From Promethearchaeota archaeon (lineage in GTDB: Archaea > Asgardarchaeota > Lokiarchaeia > Sigyniarchaeales > SOKP01): a stretch of DNA of 64,000 bases. The position numbers and the translations under genes were made by a program. The notes beneath the pieces are model-generated. The model was not told where the DNA came from. It made no database searches and was given only the letters and a program-made list of their open reading frames with translations. The DNA is taken from the NCBI GenBank assembly GCA_016840085.1, contig JAEOTA010000022.1, forward strand, positions 32,001 through 96,000. Direction: 5' to 3'. Positions 7,619 through 41,229 of this stretch are shown here, piece by piece (position 1 is the stretch's first letter; each line of letters opens with the position of its first letter).

Positions 7619-8173
7619 TTATAACGACGGAATTAATTTCGCAAAACTGCAGCGAGTTTTAATTTCTATTGATGATAATTTAAAACTTCTTATAAATTTT
7701 ATGAGTGCACGCTGAAATTTCTTGAAAGTGTCAAAAAAAGTGTTATGCGTGACCTGTTTGCGGAAGAACTTCCAAAACCACTCCATTGGATTTAAATCGG
7801 GGGAGTATGGCGGTAGAAAGAGAAGCTCAAATTTTTCCTTGTTAGCTTCTAAAAATGGTTCTAACTCCTTAGAATGGTGCGCACGGGCATTGTCCAATAT
7901 CAGGAGGATTTTCCCCGAGTTCATATACCTGGCAAGGAGCCCCTCTAAAAAATGTTGGAAATGGGATGCCTTTAACGTGTTAGATAATGCCACATGAACT
8001 TTTCCAGCTAGGGGTTCAACTGCACCAATGAGATGTTGTCGTTGCCGACCGCCGTAGGTTAAGATTTCGGGCTGTTGCCCTTTTAACGACCACATGCGAG
8101 TGATGGACGGCGAAAACTGGATACTCGCCTCGTCTTGGAAAAGAACTACGCCATCTTCTCCGAGAGAGTCCAA
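7619..8173 (-). CDS. IS630 transposase DDE ORF B (probably joined to ORF A by a -1 frameshift)
   Basis: FQDEA, LILDNARAH and LPPYSPDLNPME motifs. The stop codon uses the target TA. Confidence 0.9.
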   Translation of the reverse strand: MDSLGEDGVVLFQDEASIQFSPSITRMWSLKGQQPEILTYGGRQRQHLIGAVEPLAGKVHVALSNTLKASHFQHFLEGLLARYMNSGKILLILDNARAHHSKELEPFLEANKEKFELLFLPPYSPDLNPMEWFWKFFRKQVTHNTFFDTFKKFQRALIKFIRSFKLSSIEIKTRCSFAKLIPSL

Positions 8174-8776
8174 ACTTTTTTAAAATCATTTAGGAATTCT
8201 TTTTGTTTCTCAATATCAGCCTTCGGAAACTTGTATCTCGGACGTTGGAGCGTAAACCCTAGCTTGTGAAGGAGTCTCTGCGCTTGGCGCACGCTTAATT
8301 CCACGCCAAATTTCTGTTTAATGTGATACGACACGCTCTTTCCTTCCCAATTGCTAAACTCATACCCTAATTCACGAGGATGGGTTAACACATCCGCTTT
8401 TAACGTTTCTTTTTCTTCTTCAGAAAGGCTTGAGGGGCGCCCTGGAGGTGTATTTGGAACGATGTTTTCTAATCCACCCTCATTGAACATCTTTACCAAA
8501 GTTTGTATCGTTCTACGAGATTTTTTTATTAGTTCTGCAACTATCGTGCAGTTCATGAACTCATGCATCAAAAAAAGAGCATGATATCGTTCTTTCAGCT
8601 TAGAATTTTTCTCTTTCTTGTAGAGCTCGACCAACTCATCGTGGTTTGGCGAGCTCCTTGTTATTTGAAGTTTTTCCATGAATCTAAGAGCAAAAAATAG
8701 TCTTATTTAAGGGTGTGATATTCAGGCGATATCCAGAAAAAGATACTTAAAGCATGAGAAATTATTTATGTCGTTA
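7622..8776 (-). mobile_element. Complete IS630-family insertion sequence (about 1155 bp)
   Basis: Terminal IRs TAACGACGGAATTAATTTC and (rc) TAACGACATAAATAATTTC differ at 3 positions. TA duplication at 7620-7621 and 8777-8778. It contains a split HTH+DDE transposase. Confidence 0.92.
8146..8679 (-). CDS. IS630 transposase N-terminal (HTH) ORF A
   Basis: ERYHAL...PPGRPSSL...W...I...FGV...RLLHKLGFTLQRPR. It overlaps ORF B in the -1 frame at TTT AAA AAA GTT. Confidence 0.9.
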   Translation of the reverse strand: MEKLQITRSSPNHDELVELYKKEKNSKLKERYHALFLMHEFMNCTIVAELIKKSRRTIQTLVKMFNEGGLENIVPNTPPGRPSSLSEEEKETLKADVLTHPRELGYEFSNWEGKSVSYHIKQKFGVELSVRQAQRLLHKLGFTLQRPRYKFPKADIEKQKEFLNDFKKVWTLSEKMA

Positions 8777-9013: not shown

Positions 9014-9403
9014 TTACCTCATAAGTGGGGAGTTCCTGGTAGGAGTCTCCTTATTTTTATATAGATAATTAGAACGGTTTTTTAAAGCTTCAATTACTTC
9101 TTTTTCGAGTGGATCTAATCCCTCGGATAGAATAGCTTCGGCAATATCTAAACCTTTTGGAGTCAGGGAAATATTATGGCGAGATCCTTGATTATTAAGA
9201 TTTGGAACGTACTTCCTGTCAATAAATTGTTTATTAGTTAAAAAAGAAAGGGCTTGAGAAATTCTACTCTTAGACTTATTAAACCTTTTAATAAGATCTT
9301 CTGTGAGTACCTCTTCCTTGCTAAATCTCTGTTGCCGGAGATATAACAGTATTCTCGTGATAAGATGAGGATAAAATTGCTTCCTTTCCTTCTTCGATAA
9401 CAC
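9014..9403 (-). CDS. Winged-helix (MarR-like) DNA-binding protein
   Basis: KSKSRISQALSFLTNKQFIDR...ISLTPKG wHTH pattern; divergent from the 544-aa gene. Confidence 0.6.
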   Translation of the reverse strand: MLSKKERKQFYPHLITRILLYLRQQRFSKEEVLTEDLIKRFNKSKSRISQALSFLTNKQFIDRKYVPNLNNQGSRHNISLTPKGLDIAEAILSEGLDPLEKEVIEALKNRSNYLYKNKETPTRNSPLMR

Positions 9404-9674: not shown

Positions 9675-11309
9675 ATGGAAAAGAAAATGAAAAAAGAGAA
9701 ATTTAAATCGAAAGAAGAAGAACATTTGTGGGAAATCAGACAAGCATACATAGAACTCGTGGACTATTTAAAAATTATCATGTTTCAACAAGGCATTTTA
9801 GAAAGACCTTCATACATGGAACTTTCAACAAAACTGGGCTTTAATTATAATTGGATTAAAGACAAAAAGGATACTCTAAAAGCACATTTTCCATTGAAAA
9901 AAACATTTGACGACTTCTTTATTAGATTAATAGCGAAAAATATAGATTTATTAAATGGTTCTTGGAATGCCATTGAAAACAAATTTCAAAATCTCTATAA
10001 CATCGCTTTTTCTACAGAAGCAAACTTGCCTTCTTCCCCATCTGTATTCAAGAAATCAATTAAAAGGCAATTCTTTGATGACATAAAGGAAATAATTAGA
10101 TATAATTTTCCAAATGCCAGAATTTTTGACACTGATTTATCTAGGATTTTCTTCAGTAGAGCTAGAGCATTAAAAGATACTCATATTAAGGGAAGTACGA
10201 AATTCAGACGCTTTGATGAATCCACGCTTTTTGCTATGATATACAGAATTCGAATAATAACTAATCAAGATTTTGTAAGAAGAATAAGAGATATTAAAAC
10301 CGTAGATCAAATGACACTTAATAGCATCAAACGCGATATTGAAAGATATATTGAGGACTTCATATTTAGCAATCCCTTTAATAGTAAATACGTAAATGAC
10401 AAGCATGATATAGGAACCAAATATTTCAAGCCTGAATATGATTTAACTTTAAACTTGTGGTTTGTTCTATCTAAAACGAAGAAAACACCAATACTTTTAA
10501 AACACGCTCAAAAGATGTTAAAATTTGATACATTTGGGAAATTTAGGAGAGGATGGGAATATTCATGGGATGGTATTATGAATATGTTGAAAGAATTGGT
10601 TAAGTTATTGCCTAGTGAAGAATATTCAAAAGCTTTTGAGAAAGCTTGGAAATATGTTGAAATACGTAATTTATACCCAGCCTTACCTAGAGTGTATCAT
10701 TCAAGTTGGTATACTAAGAATACTATAAAATATCATGTATTAATGCTAATCATCCGTGATTTAGGACTAGATATTTTAAATCTTGACCGGATTAAACCAG
10801 AAGCTTTTAACAAGACTCAATTTATGGATTCTTACACATTTGAGAGACATCATATCTATATAAATGATAAATACTCAATCGATGTAAATAGACTAGTACT
10901 AGTTATGCATATGTATCACAACGACCTTGAAGGTAAAACTGATTTAGTATTAGAATTAGTCAAAAGAAGAATTGATTTAACTTTAGAATGTCCTCAATAC
11001 TATAAAACTAATCTCAAAGAATGGAAAACTAAGTGGCAAGAATATCTTGAAAGACGAAATTATTTAATAGAAAATGGCATAGAGAATTTCATCGTGAATT
11101 ATTTTACTGATGAACAAGGAAACAATTATGTACTTAATAGATTTTTTAATAATGTTCCCAAAGGTCATATTGAACAAGAAATACGAAGCATGATGCAAGA
11201 TTGGATTAACAAAGGAAGACCAGCACCAATTTTAAACACCCACATCTTAAATAGACTCTTTTTGGGAACGTCCCAACTTTTAAATAGTGGTTATTCACCC
11301 AATATTTAA
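9675..11309 (+). CDS. Hypothetical protein with an HNH-like (His-Me finger) nuclease motif
   Basis: FERHHI...SIDVNRLVLVMHMYH motif at about 10731-10932. It is homologous to the frame at 38949-39782. Confidence 0.55.
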   Translation: MEKKMKKEKFKSKEEEHLWEIRQAYIELVDYLKIIMFQQGILERPSYMELSTKLGFNYNWIKDKKDTLKAHFPLKKTFDDFFIRLIAKNIDLLNGSWNAIENKFQNLYNIAFSTEANLPSSPSVFKKSIKRQFFDDIKEIIRYNFPNARIFDTDLSRIFFSRARALKDTHIKGSTKFRRFDESTLFAMIYRIRIITNQDFVRRIRDIKTVDQMTLNSIKRDIERYIEDFIFSNPFNSKYVNDKHDIGTKYFKPEYDLTLNLWFVLSKTKKTPILLKHAQKMLKFDTFGKFRRGWEYSWDGIMNMLKELVKLLPSEEYSKAFEKAWKYVEIRNLYPALPRVYHSSWYTKNTIKYHVLMLIIRDLGLDILNLDRIKPEAFNKTQFMDSYTFERHHIYINDKYSIDVNRLVLVMHMYHNDLEGKTDLVLELVKRRIDLTLECPQYYKTNLKEWKTKWQEYLERRNYLIENGIENFIVNYFTDEQGNNYVLNRFFNNVPKGHIEQEIRSMMQDWINKGRPAPILNTHILNRLFLGTSQLLNSGYSPNI

Positions 11310-11360
11310 ATTTTTTTTTTTTTTTTTCCATACCTTTTCTTTACTTATGAAAGATGAGTG

Positions 11361-11379
11361 AAGACCCATTATTTAAATA
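11361..11379 (+). promoter_or_regulatory. Putative archaeal promoter (AAGACCC...TATTTAAATA) of the Zn-ribbon gene
   Basis: The same motif occurs before the paralogue at 39799-39820. The TATA-like box is about 29 nt before the ATG. Confidence 0.5.
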
Positions 11380-11407
11380 GTTTTTTTCCTATAAGTCTAC
11401 TATAATT

Positions 11408-11857
11408 ATGAAAGATGAGCGAAGAGTCATTATACGCAATGAACAACTTAAAAAGCTAAGAAATAACCTTAGAGAAATTATAATAAGAGCTGTTTATGAT
11501 GAGATTGAGATATTACGAAATTTTGATAGTTTATACGAAGGATGGCTGGAATTAACACAAGAAGAACAAAAAGAAGTTGCTTATTTACAAGGAACAAAAC
11601 ATAGTCTTTCTAGAGCATTAAATAATTCTATTTGTGTGTGCCCTCTTTGCACTCAAAGCGATAAGGATATGGTATATATCGCTGATCATGAAATTTGGTA
11701 TTGTATCGAATGCCAAGAAAAAGGGCTTATCTGGTACCCCTCACATGGAAGTGAAGAAGACAGAAGACAACATGATTACATAAATTGGTATTATGAACAG
11801 AAAGATAAGTTTACTAAAAAGTATCTCAATAAAGATAAAAAGGCTTCCGGTAAATAG
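11408..11857 (+). CDS. Zn-ribbon protein (CxxC-17-CxxC), partner of the HNH-like protein
   Basis: CPLC...WYCIEC; clear paralogue of 39834-40280. Confidence 0.7.
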   Translation: MKDERRVIIRNEQLKKLRNNLREIIIRAVYDEIEILRNFDSLYEGWLELTQEEQKEVAYLQGTKHSLSRALNNSICVCPLCTQSDKDMVYIADHEIWYCIECQEKGLIWYPSHGSEEDRRQHDYINWYYEQKDKFTKKYLNKDKKASGK

Positions 11858-12303: not shown

Positions 12304-12801
12304 TTATTCTTTTACTTGAGCAAAAGGGCTATTGGCCGCAAATCGAATTAGATCTTCCTCCGCTTGTTTTACAATATATGAGGGAGAGTTAACAATTTTA
12401 TCACCAATAGCAATATGTTTATGCACAATTTTCTGACGCGCTTCGTGAATTGTCTGCGCAAGACCTTTTTCATAGACAAGAGTCTGTAATCTTCGTTTTA
12501 AAAGATCTTCAACAGTAATGAGGAGTACATCCTCGAATTCTGCTTGTTCTCCAATTATACCTAGTCGATTCAATTTTTTGATTAATGTTTGTTGAACTTC
12601 AAGAGCTTGCTCTTTCGATAAAGTTCTAGATTGTCGCGCTATATGACGCCAATTTCCTAACGTAGTGCGAGTTTTCCAGAATTCTCGTTTATTCCTTAGA
12701 CCATATTTACCCAAGAATTCAAGTTCTTCCATCATTCTATCTTTTTGAAACGGATGTTTAGGCTTCTTAAATTTCTTTTTTAGCCGTCTAGGATCTCCCA
12801 T
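12304..12801 (-). CDS. rps4: 30S ribosomal protein S4 (uS4)
   Basis: MGDPRR...KPKHP, YGLRNKRE, RRLQTLVY, ARQKIVHKHI, NSPSY. Confidence 0.97.
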   Translation of the reverse strand: MGDPRRLKKKFKKPKHPFQKDRMMEELEFLGKYGLRNKREFWKTRTTLGNWRHIARQSRTLSKEQALEVQQTLIKKLNRLGIIGEQAEFEDVLLITVEDLLKRRLQTLVYEKGLAQTIHEARQKIVHKHIAIGDKIVNSPSYIVKQAEEDLIRFAANSPFAQVKE

Positions 12802-31113: not shown

Positions 31114-32901
31114 TTAAGTGATTTTGAATTTTCTCTTTCTTTTCTCTAACACTACTATGAAAGATATGATACCTACAGTTCCAATTAATAACGTGTAATT
31201 ATATCCCGGAATAAAGGGCTTTTTCCCATCAATTTCCTCTTCCACTTCATATTCGTCAAAATAGACCGTAAGTGTCGGATCATGGCGTAACCGTTCTCCG
31301 CTCCATACAGGATAATTTTGCGTCTCTAATCTGAATAGACTATCAGCTATGTTAAATGAAGGGTCTTGTTTGACAATATCTACCAATGTAAAAATAGAAT
31401 TTATAAAAGGTTGTTCATGGTACGAAGACGAGTCCATATACCACATTACCATTGGATGAATGCTTCCGCCTTCAGATTCAAGAACTGTATTTTTATCTGA
31501 TATTGGAAAGTCATAAAGTGTATAATTCTTCTTGTCCGGTCCGCCCATGTTAATTGTTGCAACCAGGGTATCATTTGACTCAAAATCAAAAGTGCTACAA
31601 GGTAGGCTTAATGCTTTAGTGTCAATTTCATCAATATCAAAGGTAGACAGAAAATAATTATATTGAGGCATTACTAATCCATACCCTTGAGATGCGTCAT
31701 ATAAGCTAGCGTTAGTAATTTTTCCAAGTTCCCAAGTAACATCCAAATCTGTTTGATTTTCTCCTACATTATAATCATATTCGAAAGAATAATCAAAAGG
31801 ACAGGAATGAATATATGATGAGTTCCCTTCCGTTCTAAAGAGACCTAATGAATACATTAGCCCTACATCTGTAGGATACCCCGGATATGTTATTCCCCAA
31901 GTTACATTAGCATCTGTAGTGTCTGTAGGAGGAGTGAATTGAATAGTGGAGGCGATTTCACTTACAGATTTATCTATGGGATACAACCAATGTCCCGACC
32001 AATTGAAGACTGTCTCTTCATCTATATATTCAATATAAGTCTCATCATAGTTATAGACTTTTGGTCTTAGCCAACCAAGCCACTCTTTGCTTGTATACAA
32101 GTATGGTGGACCACTGAGATCCTCACTATCAGCTACAGAATAGATCATATTCGAATCTAAATCCTTATAGACGAGAAGATCATAGAACATATTCAGCCAT
32201 GCTATTCTATCGTTGTTTTCTGTAGTAAATAATTGAATAGTTAATATAAGGGGTAAAGAGAATTCCCCAGAAATACCTTGATAAAGGAAATAAGGTTTTC
32301 TAGTTGTATTCCGGATGTAGGAATACTGCTTTTCATCATATATATCATCAGTAGAGCTCCATGAATCCAACAATTCATCAGTTGAAAAATCATATTGTTC
32401 ATATTCACTCTCAATATTTTGGTGGTATTCCTCGTAATAACTGAAATTATGTATAGAGGAAGCCTGATAGTATTCCATTTCCATCGTTCCTTGCTTAAAG
32501 GCTAACCAAATCACTTTCACATTCGATCCATAATCGATATTCACACGATACACAGTAAAATCAAAATCGATCGTTATATTTCCTATTATAGTATATTCTG
32601 AGACATAAGAATAATTTGCCTCATGAAATATGGTATGTTCTCCAATCGTTTTCGTAATATCAGTACTATTATACTCTTCAGTATACGTGTCATAGGTATC
32701 CTTATAGCTTCCAGAGTGATTAATCGCAATCGAGTCTCCAGTCCAGATCTTTTGGACGGAATATGAAAATGTGGTCTCTTCCCATGAGAACTCTAAAGTT
32801 GGTTCTGTTGGTTTATCCGCACGAGTAAATAAATTCATCGAGAATAGATTCAGTGTTAGAAGTGATACCACAACAATAACTACAACATATTTTTTATTAA
32901 T
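31114..32901 (-). CDS. Cell-surface protein with a C-terminal sorting/TM signal (Loki-CTERM-like); start probably ATT at 32901
   Basis: Acidic/Tyr-rich body ending IPGY-TM-KRKRK. The frame is open 10 codons upstream of the GTG (INKKYVVVIVVV), behind GGTGA. Confidence 0.75.
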   Translation of the reverse strand: MNKKYVVVIVVVSLLTLNLFSMNLFTRADKPTEPTLEFSWEETTFSYSVQKIWTGDSIAINHSGSYKDTYDTYTEEYNSTDITKTIGEHTIFHEANYSYVSEYTIIGNITIDFDFTVYRVNIDYGSNVKVIWLAFKQGTMEMEYYQASSIHNFSYYEEYHQNIESEYEQYDFSTDELLDSWSSTDDIYDEKQYSYIRNTTRKPYFLYQGISGEFSLPLILTIQLFTTENNDRIAWLNMFYDLLVYKDLDSNMIYSVADSEDLSGPPYLYTSKEWLGWLRPKVYNYDETYIEYIDEETVFNWSGHWLYPIDKSVSEIASTIQFTPPTDTTDANVTWGITYPGYPTDVGLMYSLGLFRTEGNSSYIHSCPFDYSFEYDYNVGENQTDLDVTWELGKITNASLYDASQGYGLVMPQYNYFLSTFDIDEIDTKALSLPCSTFDFESNDTLVATINMGGPDKKNYTLYDFPISDKNTVLESEGGSIHPMVMWYMDSSSYHEQPFINSIFTLVDIVKQDPSFNIADSLFRLETQNYPVWSGERLRHDPTLTVYFDEYEVEEEIDGKKPFIPGYNYTLLIGTVGIISFIVVLEKRKRKFKIT

Positions 32902-38573: not shown

Positions 38574-38771
38574 ATGGTTGATCTTAAAATGGCGAAAAAA
38601 TACTTAAAAAAGCATATTCCAGAAAATAGTATTACTATCATCCTAAATTTTGAATCTAAAGATATGCTTCAAGCTTTTTTAAATGATGAAGAATACCAAA
38701 AAATCTATGGAAAATTAGATACTTATGCAATTCAAAATGGAGCTAAAGTTGAGCACTTTATAAATAGTTAA
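38574..38771 (+). CDS. Small hypothetical protein
   Basis: 65-aa ATG ORF, divergent from the previous pair. Confidence 0.45.
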   Translation: MVDLKMAKKYLKKHIPENSITIILNFESKDMLQAFLNDEEYQKIYGKLDTYAIQNGAKVEHFINS

Positions 38772-38948: not shown

Positions 38949-39782
38949 GTTAGAGTTAGCGGAGGTAACTCTATAGACTCCCAGAAAGCCATTTCATATA
39001 GAGTAGCTCAGAATACTATTGCATTTTATGCTCAGCTCCGTAGTTTAGATATAAGTGGTAAGGGAGATTCCTCGAAAGATCGAGGGAATTTTAATAGTAA
39101 TCAAGCAAAGGTCTATAATGTCATTCTCGGTCTAGGACGCCATTTGGGGTTTGATCCTGCCTTCTTCAGACCTGTTGACGATCAAATGTTCGACATGAAT
39201 GCAGGCGTGAAGGAATTGTTCAAATCCTTAGGGAAGAAGTTATGGATCTTTATCCGGCACCACTTTCGAAATAATCCTAATCGTGCATCGATAGCTATAA
39301 CTGATCAAGTGGTAATTGATTCCAGAAGTCATACTTTCTGGGAGAAAAGTATGTCTGAGGATGATGCACTCGTTGCGACTCAAGTGCTTGAGAGTCTTAT
39401 TAGATATGGTCGTCCCGTCAAGGAAGCTGATATTCGGAATGAATTTGCGAAAGCTGGGAATCAATATTCGTGGATTATGTTTAATTGGTTAAATCAGCCG
39501 AAATTCTCTGAAGCTCTTCAGCTGTTTAATGAAAGAAAGGATGATATAAAATCAATACCGATTGATGAGTTTATTGAACAAAATTTCCCAAAGACTTATA
39601 AGAAGTTTGTTGAGACCATGTTAAAGACCAGCCATGTTAGCATACTGGAAATAATTCAAGCGATGCACCCGACTATTGATGTCACTGAACTTGTAAATCT
39701 TGGAACTAATGACGATCATATCGGTCCTTACTCGACGGTGTTTGCCGAGATCTTGAAAATGTATAGATATCCAGTTTTCTGA
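38949..39782 (+). pseudogene. 5'-truncated (orphan) HNH-like domain cassette homologous to 9675-11309
   Basis: The frame is open from 38949 (after TGA 38946-48) with no start codon until TTG 39144, which lies inside the conserved block YNV.....RHLGFD...FIRHH...SI....VV....H. Confidence 0.6.
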
Positions 39783-39833
39783 CCAAATCACTACTCCCAA
39801 GACCCCCAAATATTTAAATAACAAGAGAGATAT

Positions 39834-40280
39834 ATGATTTATATGAGAGACAAACGAGCAATTATTATTAAAAGTCCAAAGCTACAAAAAATTCGAAATA
39901 ATTTGCGCAACTTAATAATACAAGCTTATCATACTCAATGGAAAGAGATTCATGACAAGTGGAGAAGTTTTTTAGTTGACTCAGAGGGAAGAAGACTCTC
40001 TATAAGAGATTTCTCACCAGATGTGTTAGAGGAGTTCAGAGATCTTCAAGAGAAAGAGAGTCAGCTAAGTGACTCACTCGACAGGTCGATACTCATGTGT
40101 GTAGCGTGCGGGAAAGCAGATCGGGACGTGGTCTATAATAAGGCTTATGATGCGTGGTATTGCACTGAATGTTATGGATTGGAGCGGTTAACCGCTCTAG
40201 AGCGTGCTAAGGCATGGAAAAAAGGAGCAAAATCATGCGAAGAGCAAGCCATTGAAGACCATTCCAAGACTTTTCTTTAA
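39834..40280 (+). CDS. Zn-ribbon protein, paralogue of 11408-11857 (start likely ATG 39843)
   Basis: MRDKRAIIIKSPKLQKIRNNLR...CVAC...WYCTEC. Confidence 0.72.
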   Translation: MIYMRDKRAIIIKSPKLQKIRNNLRNLIIQAYHTQWKEIHDKWRSFLVDSEGRRLSIRDFSPDVLEEFRDLQEKESQLSDSLDRSILMCVACGKADRDVVYNKAYDAWYCTECYGLERLTALERAKAWKKGAKSCEEQAIEDHSKTFL

Positions 40281-40482: not shown

Positions 40483-41229
40483 ATGGAAAGATCTCCTGAT
40501 CGTATTTGGCATTTAGAAAAGAAATTAGAAAAGAAAGGATTAACCTATAGTTATCATACTAAACTTTATCAAACTGAGATAGGAACCATTTTTTTCATGA
40601 CAAGAGATTATGCCTATTTAAGTGGAATGATCGACGGATAAAAATTTTATCCTTTGAACACATTTTTAAAAAGATGTAAATTTATAGAGGCTGATGGCCC
40701 TATAAGTTATTATCACCCTAGAAAAGGTCCTGTGAAACAATATGGGATTCAGTATGGAAAAAATGACTTTTGGAAATTGCGAAATCTTAGAAAAGTATTA
40801 TATCTAATTAAAAATGCAGAATTAGGAAAGCATCCTAAATCAGGGTTGGGACTTGCTGTACAAAATGATAAGTATGTTGCAATAATTGGGGCTACTGATT
40901 CTGGCATTGATGATTTTGAGGATGAATTATCAAGAATTGAATTTGAAAAGACTATTTTCCCGTTTGAAGGATTGGAGATATCAAAACAGCAAATACGATA
41001 TTTCTTAAAACGTTTAGCTGGAGAGGAAGGGTGTCAATACACAGGAATTGAGTGGAGATGTGGTGGAAAGGAGTTTACTTATACAAAGACGATTTTAAAC
41101 TTGATGGAAATACCCCAAAAAGAGCAAAATAAATTCATTAAAATTTGTCAAGAATATGGTGGCTATTGTGATTGTGAGATCCTTATGAACGCTGCTCAAT
41201 TTTTATTAGATGAGGATACTCCTTGGTAA
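40483..41229 (+). pseudogene. Gene interrupted by an in-frame TAA (40639-40641); C-terminal DUF2695-like domain
   Basis: ATG 40483 MERSPDRIWH...GMIDG*KFYPLNTF continues in frame with the track ORF; GGYCDCEILMN motif. Confidence 0.6.

Follow-up and report, generated by a model that had tools for sequence, protein, structure and literature searches.

What could a pair of genes be for, that occurs twice, about 28 kb apart, in the genome of a Lokiarchaeial archaeon and that resembles nothing in the family databases, is the question raised by positions 32,001 to 96,000 of contig JAEOTA010000022.1 of Promethearchaeota archaeon. This stretch of 64,000 nucleotides, hereafter the window, is G000:C9:32001-96000 in the handles used below, and the genome G000 from which it comes comprises 4.68 Mb in 89 contigs. 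In both copies, a gene or open frame carrying a predicted nuclease module, marked by an R-H-H...H (RHH) signature of the HNH type, is followed by a gene for a small zinc-ribbon protein; the original prediction made for the window had proposed a toxin-immunity family of Asgard archaea or, as an alternative, a selfish homing-endonuclease-like module. The answer offered here, with moderate confidence, is that the pair would constitute a polymorphic toxin-immunity system peculiar to one Lokiarchaeial family and composed of a nuclease toxin and a zinc-ribbon immunity protein. The elements of the two loci, in positions of the window, are the following.

9675..11309, + strand: copy 1 RHH-HNH module protein, an open reading frame (ORF) of 544 amino acids (aa), stand-alone.
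10707..11084, + strand: predicted HNH (His-Me finger) core of copy 1, from DSSP on AlphaFold2 (AF2) models and from VIA-align.
11311..11327, + strand: run of 17 T (T17), read from the sequence, immediately behind the HNH stop codon; resembles an archaeal terminator, putative in function.
11369..11379, + strand: TATA-like box TTATTTAAATA, some 29 bp ahead of the copy 1 zinc-ribbon start; putative in function.
11408..11857, + strand: copy 1 zinc-ribbon partner, an ORF of 149 aa.
38949..39782, + strand: copy 2 upstream open frame, 277 codons, in which the RHH...H core is still encoded.
39810-39821: TATA-like box ATATTTAAATAA, before the copy 2 zinc-ribbon gene; likewise putative in function.
39834..40280, + strand: copy 2 zinc-ribbon partner, an ORF of 148 aa.
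40654..41229, + strand: DUF2695-domain protein of 191 aa (Pfam PF10905, E=1e-7).

As far as the two loci themselves are concerned, the original prediction was accurate: the gene pair was located at both, with every quoted motif string present, and the zinc-ribbon proteins proved to be the clear paralogues that had been announced (35% identity over 110 aa, BLASTP E=4e-19). The upstream proteins, described as very divergent and yet related, show no significant pairwise similarity, their best high-scoring segment pair being the quoted RHH block itself (E=0.71); a profile (alignment A1) combining 22 relatives of the 544-aa protein nevertheless matches the copy 2 frame with E=6.3e-9, so that their homology is real and the idea that the two ORFs are unrelated is ruled out. 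Both the T17 run behind the HNH gene and the TATA-like boxes ahead of the two zinc-ribbon genes suggest that the partner is transcribed independently, from a promoter of its own. A 12-nt direct repeat, ATGAAAGATGAG, is found in front of and at the beginning of the copy 1 zinc-ribbon gene (11347-11358 and 11408-11419): its first occurrence opens a mini-ORF of 4 codons ending in TGA, 61 nt before the true start, which coincides with the second, identical occurrence; the repeat may be the leftover of a duplication or a recombination junction.

The fold of the module was deduced from the 544-aa protein, whose AF2 model, computed from a 43-row alignment, has a mean predicted local distance difference test score (pLDDT) of 91.7 and comprises a four-helix bundle (aa 1-115), two helical domains (aa 129-331), the HNH core (aa ~345-470) and a C-terminal helical cap. 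Within the core, DSSP assigns strand 1 to aa 389-393 (F-E-R391-H392-H393), strand 2 to aa 407-411 and a helix to aa 412-418, N405 lying just ahead of strand 2, H415 on the helix and E419 right after it; the isolated domain (aa 335-544) folds alike, with strand-strand-helix at the motif (pLDDT 91.9, predicted template-modelling score 0.88). The RHH block thus models, as had been anticipated, as a beta-beta-alpha unit (pLDDT>90), and its supposed kinship with HNH/His-Me finger nucleases is borne out by the structural neighbours of the isolated domain: in VIA-align, 38 of 48,161 representative chains are retrieved at Z>=2, and about 28 of these 38 are HNH nucleases. The best of them is Cap5 (7rwk_B; Z 6.0, rmsd 3.0 A over 92 aa), with further Cap5 chains at Z 5.0 and 4.2; the other HNH neighbours include the HNH domains of Cas9 and IscB, McrA, PtuB, a retron HNH, GVE2, Gme, T4 endonuclease VII, ZRANB3 and PacI. 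Given that the Z scores are modest, the argument rests on the specificity of this list. In Foldseek, the rows obtained with the isolated domain are individually weak (E>=0.46) and consist mostly of Cas9 HNH domains, Cap5 and McrA; searches with the whole protein are uninformative, the best Foldseek row having E=0.07 and the VIA-align list being made up of four-helix bundles matching aa 1-115.

The core has the consensus LRDLG.D..L..P..F.K...F.RHHI..NDK.SID.NRL.L....H..LEG, and R391-H392-H393 and H415 are kept in every module examined, in a family whose members are overall just 14-30% identical. In copy 1 the spacings read from the sequence are 13 (H392-N405) and 10 (N405-H415), which are close to those of colicin E9. 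At the level of sequence families, no HNH-clan Pfam entry (including PF01844) matches the four window proteins at E<=1 or ten long homologues at E<=0.01, and a search of the module profile against Protein Data Bank (PDB) sequences returned nothing at E<=10; ESM Atlas gives a weak lead, 'putative HNH endonuclease' (0.78). Neither module nor partner belongs to a family in Pfam, NCBIfam, PADLOC or PHROGs, in agreement with the statement that the pair was not recognised as described. An exhaustive phmmer search of 1.84 billion representatives yielded 47 homologue clusters of the 544-aa protein, some of which are the C-terminal ends of longer proteins (1,099 and 1,630 aa) devoid of any Pfam domain. 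The modelled core is therefore a cysteine-free HNH/His-Me-finger domain with an R-H-H...H signature, recognisable by its fold and not by Pfam HNH families. A 933-aa protein with hydrophobic N- and C-terminal segments, encoded elsewhere in the genome (G000:C78:2158-4959, L040), aligns with the N-terminal helical part of the module profile alone (positions 47-204, E=6e-10) and lacks an HNH core; the small gene upstream of it (L040 547-807) resembles window ORF 38574-38771, just upstream of copy 2.

The partner of copy 1 consists of an N-terminal basic helix (IIIRN..L.K.RNNLR) and a helical hairpin, followed by SIC.CP.C-x16-WYC.EC; I9, L14, R18, R22, S74, W97, C99 and C102 are invariant in the family. 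Its close homologues come from Promethearchaeota and Lokiarchaeia metagenome-assembled genomes, as expected for a family of Asgard archaea. Comparison of the partner profile with PDB sequences gave chance rows of LIM-type zinc fingers only, ESM Atlas gave unnamed clusters only, and in viral contigs, where the partner alone was searched for, no relatives of the zinc ribbon were found.

A context which suggests a function is found outside the window, in related genomes, where RHH domains occur, as the original prediction had expected, at the C-termini of huge surface-type proteins. In G003:C7 the module forms the last ~490 residues of a single ORF of 12,736 aa and a zinc-ribbon gene follows; hydrophobic, transmembrane-like segments, located by a hydropathy scan only, are confined to the first ~1,200 residues of this giant, its body is rich in Ser, Thr, Asp and Tyr with 0.5% Cys, and Pfam detects nothing in the 12,736 aa other than Laminin_G_3 and H_lectin. 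The same organisation is shared by a giant in G067:C48, with a C-terminal module and then a zinc-ribbon gene, by one of 14,833 aa in G049:C3, where the partner is fused to DUF2695, and by one of 12,456 aa in G061:C135, laid out as in G003:C7 and carrying a divergent module (hhalign probability 94.8%, E=5e-8). Further module matches lie in open frames of 11,376 aa (G221:C69, at the C-terminus), 2,990 and 1,963 aa; altogether, at least seven genomes have the module in an open frame of ~2,000 aa or longer, and four of these frames are giants exceeding 11,000 aa.

Among the giants, the 1,000 aa ahead of the module are 43-51% identical and the modules themselves just 21-28%. Moreover, homologous giants exist (G021:C5, G021:C37, G023:C13 with 20,619 aa and G045:C47 with 14,557 aa) whose similarity stops near query residue 620; their C-termini are unrelated, and no zinc-ribbon gene comes after them. 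The combination of conserved carriers, variable ends and absence of the zinc-ribbon gene after other ends indicates that the partner tracks one kind of end. Across the genus (G023:C13, G049:C3, G045:C47, G061:C95, G069:C7 and C8), many frames of 9,000-20,619 aa share a homologous region, mostly lack Pfam domains and differ in their C-termini, and the giant in G023:C13 is followed by a gene for an Arf-family small GTPase (L052 6351-7220).

The distribution of the two families was surveyed in 301 genomes drawn across the phylum, comparing the genome's own family f1 (68 genomes) with 29 other families (232 genomes). The zinc-ribbon family is present in 41 and the HNH module in 24 of the 68 genomes of f1, and neither occurs in the 232 others. 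By comparison of coordinates, 32 of 46 module matches have a zinc-ribbon match downstream on the same strand within ~750 bp, and in the genome's own genus a zinc-ribbon paralogue comes directly after nine of ten profile matches; at 3-4 copies in a genome of ~4 Mb, less than 0.1% per match would be expected by chance, so that the pairing is far beyond chance. Six of the modules lacking a zinc-ribbon match downstream were examined: one keeps a 44-aa zinc-ribbon remnant (G202:C56), one precedes a 519-aa protein with zinc-finger, repeat and DUF2695 parts (G138:C103), one precedes a 560-aa repeat protein (G221:C69), one lies on a contig that ends within ~190 bp of the end of the frame (G202:C127), and the remaining two are weighed below. 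Partner and module also diverge in step (Mantel r=0.89 for 12 pairs, a value driven by two orthologous groups and obtained from related pairs that are not independent).

Zinc-ribbon matches are about three times as numerous as module matches (~150 versus 46), and many of them contain stop codons. Six tandem zinc-ribbon genes are found in G014:C35, with one truncated module among them, and a similar small array with a truncated module in G012:C61; other orphan copies occupy conserved sites beside actin, histone and rpS11 genes. The expected non-random linkage of module and zinc-ribbon gene is borne out, 32 of the 46 modules being followed by a zinc-ribbon gene; most zinc-ribbon paralogues, for their part, are orphans with unrelated neighbours. 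These would fit orphan immunity genes and would also fit genes with an independent function. Paralogues adjoin a lokiactin-type actin gene in four genomes (L013, L028, L029 and L050, in G021, G016, G022 and G067, respectively), and because, in G067, a giant gene with the HNH module ends at this site as well, the actin-linked orphans were probably left behind when a giant was lost. A further paralogue of 176 aa (G000:C25:20778-21131, L005 1483-2013) sits inside a type-B carboxylesterase gene, between an N-terminal part (L005 527-1299, frameshifted) and a C-terminal part (2135-2695), with ~60-70 esterase codons missing; it is an insertion or replacement that disrupted the esterase gene.

Seen against this background, the two copies in the window differ in kind. 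The copy 2 frame matches the last 272 aa (12465-12736) of the 12,736-aa ORF of G003:C7 with 63% identity (tblastn), the rest of that giant having no match in the window by tblastn and none in G000; its first in-frame ATG, GTG or TTG is the TTG at 39144. Because no start codon precedes this TTG and because only the end of the giant is matched, copy 2 is, to judge from its sequence, the 3' remnant (last 272 codons) of a lost giant gene, accompanied by an intact partner; an intact small gene was considered and rejected, there being no start codon ahead of the core and a match to the end of a giant. The zinc-ribbon gene of copy 2, whose conserved start aligns with the second ATG at 39843, is the orthologue of those following the giants in G003:C7 and G067:C48 (65-68% identity). 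The adjacent DUF2695 gene is likely a third member of the copy 2 cassette: in G021:C146, G018:C185 and G049:C3 the zinc-ribbon partner and DUF2695 form one fused protein, and DUF2695 also ends the 519-aa gene after the module in G138:C103. A literature search on DUF2695 retrieved nothing useful.

Copy 1, by contrast with this remnant, is a complete stand-alone gene pair located beside the rpS13-S4-S11 genes, in synteny with G012, G002 and G014; the same site holds the zinc-ribbon partner only in G013. To judge from this conserved position, it is inherited vertically as a stand-alone pair; that it belongs to the ribosomal operon was discarded, the pair being on the opposite strand and variably present. 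Copy 1 sits at the edge of a defence island. Between the island and copy 1 lies an IS630/Tc1-type transposase (7619-8679, - strand) encoded in two overlapping ORFs, with helix-turn-helix (HTH) domains at 8146-8679 and a DDE_3 domain at 7619-8173, which has probably suffered a frameshift or is expressed by programmed frameshifting. Upstream of copy 1, in divergent orientation, lies a gene for a small winged-helix protein (9014-9403, - strand), and one for a different such protein lies upstream of the giant gene of G003 (L041 9196-9528, - strand); both are possible local regulators. About 30 kb before the start of the window, a 31-codon fragment (G000:C9:2025-2117), 81% identical to the tail of the copy 1 zinc ribbon (aa 115-145), is an isolated vestige of a third copy on this contig.

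The toxin reading is preferred because the whole set of features matches the organisation of polymorphic toxins as laid down by Zhang et al. 2012 (PMC3482391): a predicted nuclease at the tip of a huge surface-type protein, exchangeable ends, a dedicated downstream gene, remnants, orphans and arrays, restriction to one lineage and fast divergence. From this match we infer nuclease activity, toxicity, neutralisation by the zinc-ribbon protein, an outside orientation of the giants and delivery of their module, and the immunity role assigned to the partner is, in the same way, putative. According to the proposed mechanism, the giant would display the predicted nuclease on the cell surface; upon contact, the nuclease would enter the neighbouring cell and degrade its DNA, one His of H392/H393 acting as the general base and the helix H415 as a metal ligand. 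The cognate zinc-ribbon protein, cytoplasmic and encoded directly downstream, apparently with its own promoter, would bind and block the nuclease, thereby shielding kin cells. Copy 2 would be the leftover of a lost giant, composed of the last 272 codons, the intact immunity gene and the DUF2695 gene, and copy 1 may act as an addiction-type or defence toxin-antitoxin pair.

A number of observations weigh against this reading. The toxin-immunity layout proposed for the window is supported by the fold, by the linkage and by the C-terminal position on giants in other genomes; in the window itself, copy 2 is only a remnant and copy 1 has no delivery part; in G000 as a whole, no giant of the module-carrying family is found (0 matches with the pre-module region), and the largest ORF measures 5,927 aa. 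Neither a secretion signal nor a releasing peptidase was found, nor a pre-toxin domain or any known machinery for delivery, archaeal routes being poorly catalogued, and the membrane topology comes from a hydropathy scan only. What is conserved is the whole cassette of ~490 aa and not a short toxin tip; N405 is kept in the copy 1 branch only, T, D, S or another residue taking its place in copy 2 and in the other branches. Two of the six modules examined have no partner, one being apparently intact and stand-alone (G067:C22) and the other a match with one internal TGA (G208:C4). As for the partner, copy 1 has 72 orthologue clusters, all 'hypothetical' and well conserved (56-82% identity), and the family is neutral to basic (isoelectric point, pI, 5.3-10) with an invariant Arg-rich N-terminal helix, properties that would also suit a nucleic-acid-binding cofactor or regulator. 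Prediction of the complex between the full 544-aa protein and its partner, with a separate alignment for each chain, gave a score of 0.01 against a mark of 0.32, a result that speaks neither for nor against binding.

Some of these points, as well as others, can be turned into different explanations. The pair could work inside the cell, as a two-component nuclease of defence or abortive infection, or of toxin-antitoxin addiction, in which the zinc ribbon restrains or activates the HNH effector and the fusions to giants are secondary. Copy 1 would suit such a role, being stand-alone and close to the IS630-type transposase and the defence island, and so would its basic product (pI 9.5), the helical domains of which weakly resemble the HTH controller protein C.EcoT38IS (Z 5.2); in addition, the best structural match, Cap5, is an effector of the cyclic-oligonucleotide-based antiphage signalling system (CBASS), and the family is patchy, multi-copy and accompanied by pseudogenes. 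We nevertheless regard it as unlikely: no PADLOC model matched, a cytoplasmic sensor-effector leaves the fusions to giants of more than 11,000 aa unexplained, and orphan zinc-ribbon genes outnumber modules ~3:1. Slightly less probable still is that the zinc-ribbon protein is no inhibitor, acting instead as a cofactor, a nucleic-acid-targeting subunit or a transcription regulator, which would also work alone at the orphan loci. The Arg-rich helix joined to a C4 zinc ribbon in a neutral to basic protein, a weak NCBIfam match to a DksA-like architecture (E=0.026, far below the cutoff), the conservation of orphans at fixed sites beside actin, histone and rpS11, and the clear purifying selection on the copy 1 orthologues would all agree with it; six-paralogue arrays, frequent pseudogenes and truncated modules are, on the other hand, typical of immunity repertoires, giants with other C-termini have no zinc-ribbon gene, and the fusion to DUF2695, together with the replacement by leucine-rich-repeat DUF2695 proteins, suggests interchangeable binding modules.

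Two further explanations concern the module itself. It might be a catalytically dead HNH-like fold, serving as a binding or structural end-piece of surface proteins, with the zinc ribbon as a chaperone or assembly factor; the lack of a Pfam HNH match, the loss of the motif Asn in one branch and Z scores of at most 6.0 are compatible with this, yet in modules otherwise so divergent conservation is highest at the catalytic-type R-H-H and at the helix His, a pattern which indicates selection on an active site and makes a dead fold improbable. The homing alternative of the original prediction, that is, a selfish free-standing HNH endonuclease spreading with an accessory gene into conserved sites, finds some echo in the presence or absence of the pair beside rpS11 among species of the genus and in the zinc-ribbon paralogue within the disrupted carboxylesterase gene (G000:C25). 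It is regarded as very improbable: neither an intron or intein context nor terminal repeats were seen, the search of viral contigs with the partner brought up no relatives, giant membrane proteins carry the module as an in-frame fusion and, in the single insertion seen, it was not the HNH gene that had moved.

If the polymorphic toxin-immunity reading is retained, a wider proposal may be put forward, more tentatively and as something plausible rather than probable: the giant (10,000-20,000-aa) membrane-anchored proteins of Loki-type archaea would serve as weapons acting on contact or as devices for recognising kin, and would carry exchangeable C-terminal effector cassettes; the first of these to be recognisable would be the RHH-HNH module together with zinc-ribbon (and DUF2695) immunity. 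Polymorphic toxin systems are well studied in bacteria; Loki-type Asgard archaea live in tight consortia and serve as models for the origin of eukaryotic cell biology. Were the proposal true, a system resembling contact-dependent inhibition would have been invented independently in the archaeal lineage closest to eukaryotes, and proteins of more than 11,000 residues would acquire a testable role in cell-cell antagonism or kin discrimination. Two unnamed families, an RHH clade of the HNH fold and its zinc-ribbon partner, both confined to one Lokiarchaeial family, are in any case defined; they tie to giant Asgard genes, and small clonable parts are supplied in the form of a 210-aa predicted nuclease domain and a 149-aa partner. 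The main interest of the locus lies in this link between the unexplained Asgard giants and a conflict function open to test.

Among known systems, the module may be compared with the HNH-fold toxin clades named for an xHH motif (AHH, LHH, WHH, SHH, GHH and HHH), whose diversification took place chiefly among polymorphic toxins (Zhang et al. 2012, PMC3482391), and with the DNases of colicins E7 and E9. A beta-beta-alpha-metal core, an x-His-His sequence ending strand 1, a His on the helix and the absence of structural zinc-binding cysteines are, in the models, common to all of them; the present module differs in having no sequence match to Pfam HNH families or solved structures, in its R-H-H...H-x3-E signature and in its long helical N-terminal extension and C-terminal helical cap. 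Its partner is unrelated to the Im proteins, and the neutralisation by Im7/Im9, encoded downstream, has been shown for the colicins, whereas here it is inferred. The closest core structure is that of Cap5 of CBASS (PDB 7rwk, 8fm1), with 13-17% identity; Cap5, however, is a SAVED-HNH fusion activated by cyclic nucleotides, and neither a SAVED domain nor a cyclase is present here.

In archaea, polymorphic toxins are scarce and most immunity superfamilies absent (PMC3482391); the partner described here is a zinc-ribbon protein and resembles none of the Imm families catalogued in that work. Archaeal polymorphic toxin systems appear, in the part of PMC8416519 that cites Makarova et al. 2019, as predicted and untested. 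Like VARTIG of Thermococcales (PMC8416519) and the predicted archaeal systems, the present one combines large surface proteins, hypervariable C-termini and variable downstream genes, and like them it is predicted only; VARTIG ends in immunoglobulin domains with no nuclease assigned, whereas the present system shows a nuclease fold, has one dedicated partner family and does not extend beyond a single Lokiarchaeial family. Earlier work on Asgard genomes recorded ORFs longer than 10,000 aa without assigning them a function (PMC8813620; bioRxiv 10.1101/2023.11.21.568195), and for the aloposon giants of the same sources, tandem genes of 3,000-6,000 aa beside tRNA sites, no C-terminal nuclease with a partner has been described. 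From CdiA-CT/CdiI, finally, the system differs in its archaeal host, in a carrier of 11,000-15,000 aa with its own N-terminal transmembrane anchor and in a cassette of ~490 aa; no CdiB, no analogue of type V, VI or VII secretion systems and no VENN, PT or HINT boundary motif was found. With CdiA-CT/CdiI and the bacterial polymorphic toxins it shares the overall plan, that is, a huge surface protein, a swappable C-terminal domain of predicted nuclease fold and a small downstream gene, and also the truncated C-terminal remnants, the orphan or tandem partner genes, the patchy distribution and the rapid divergence.

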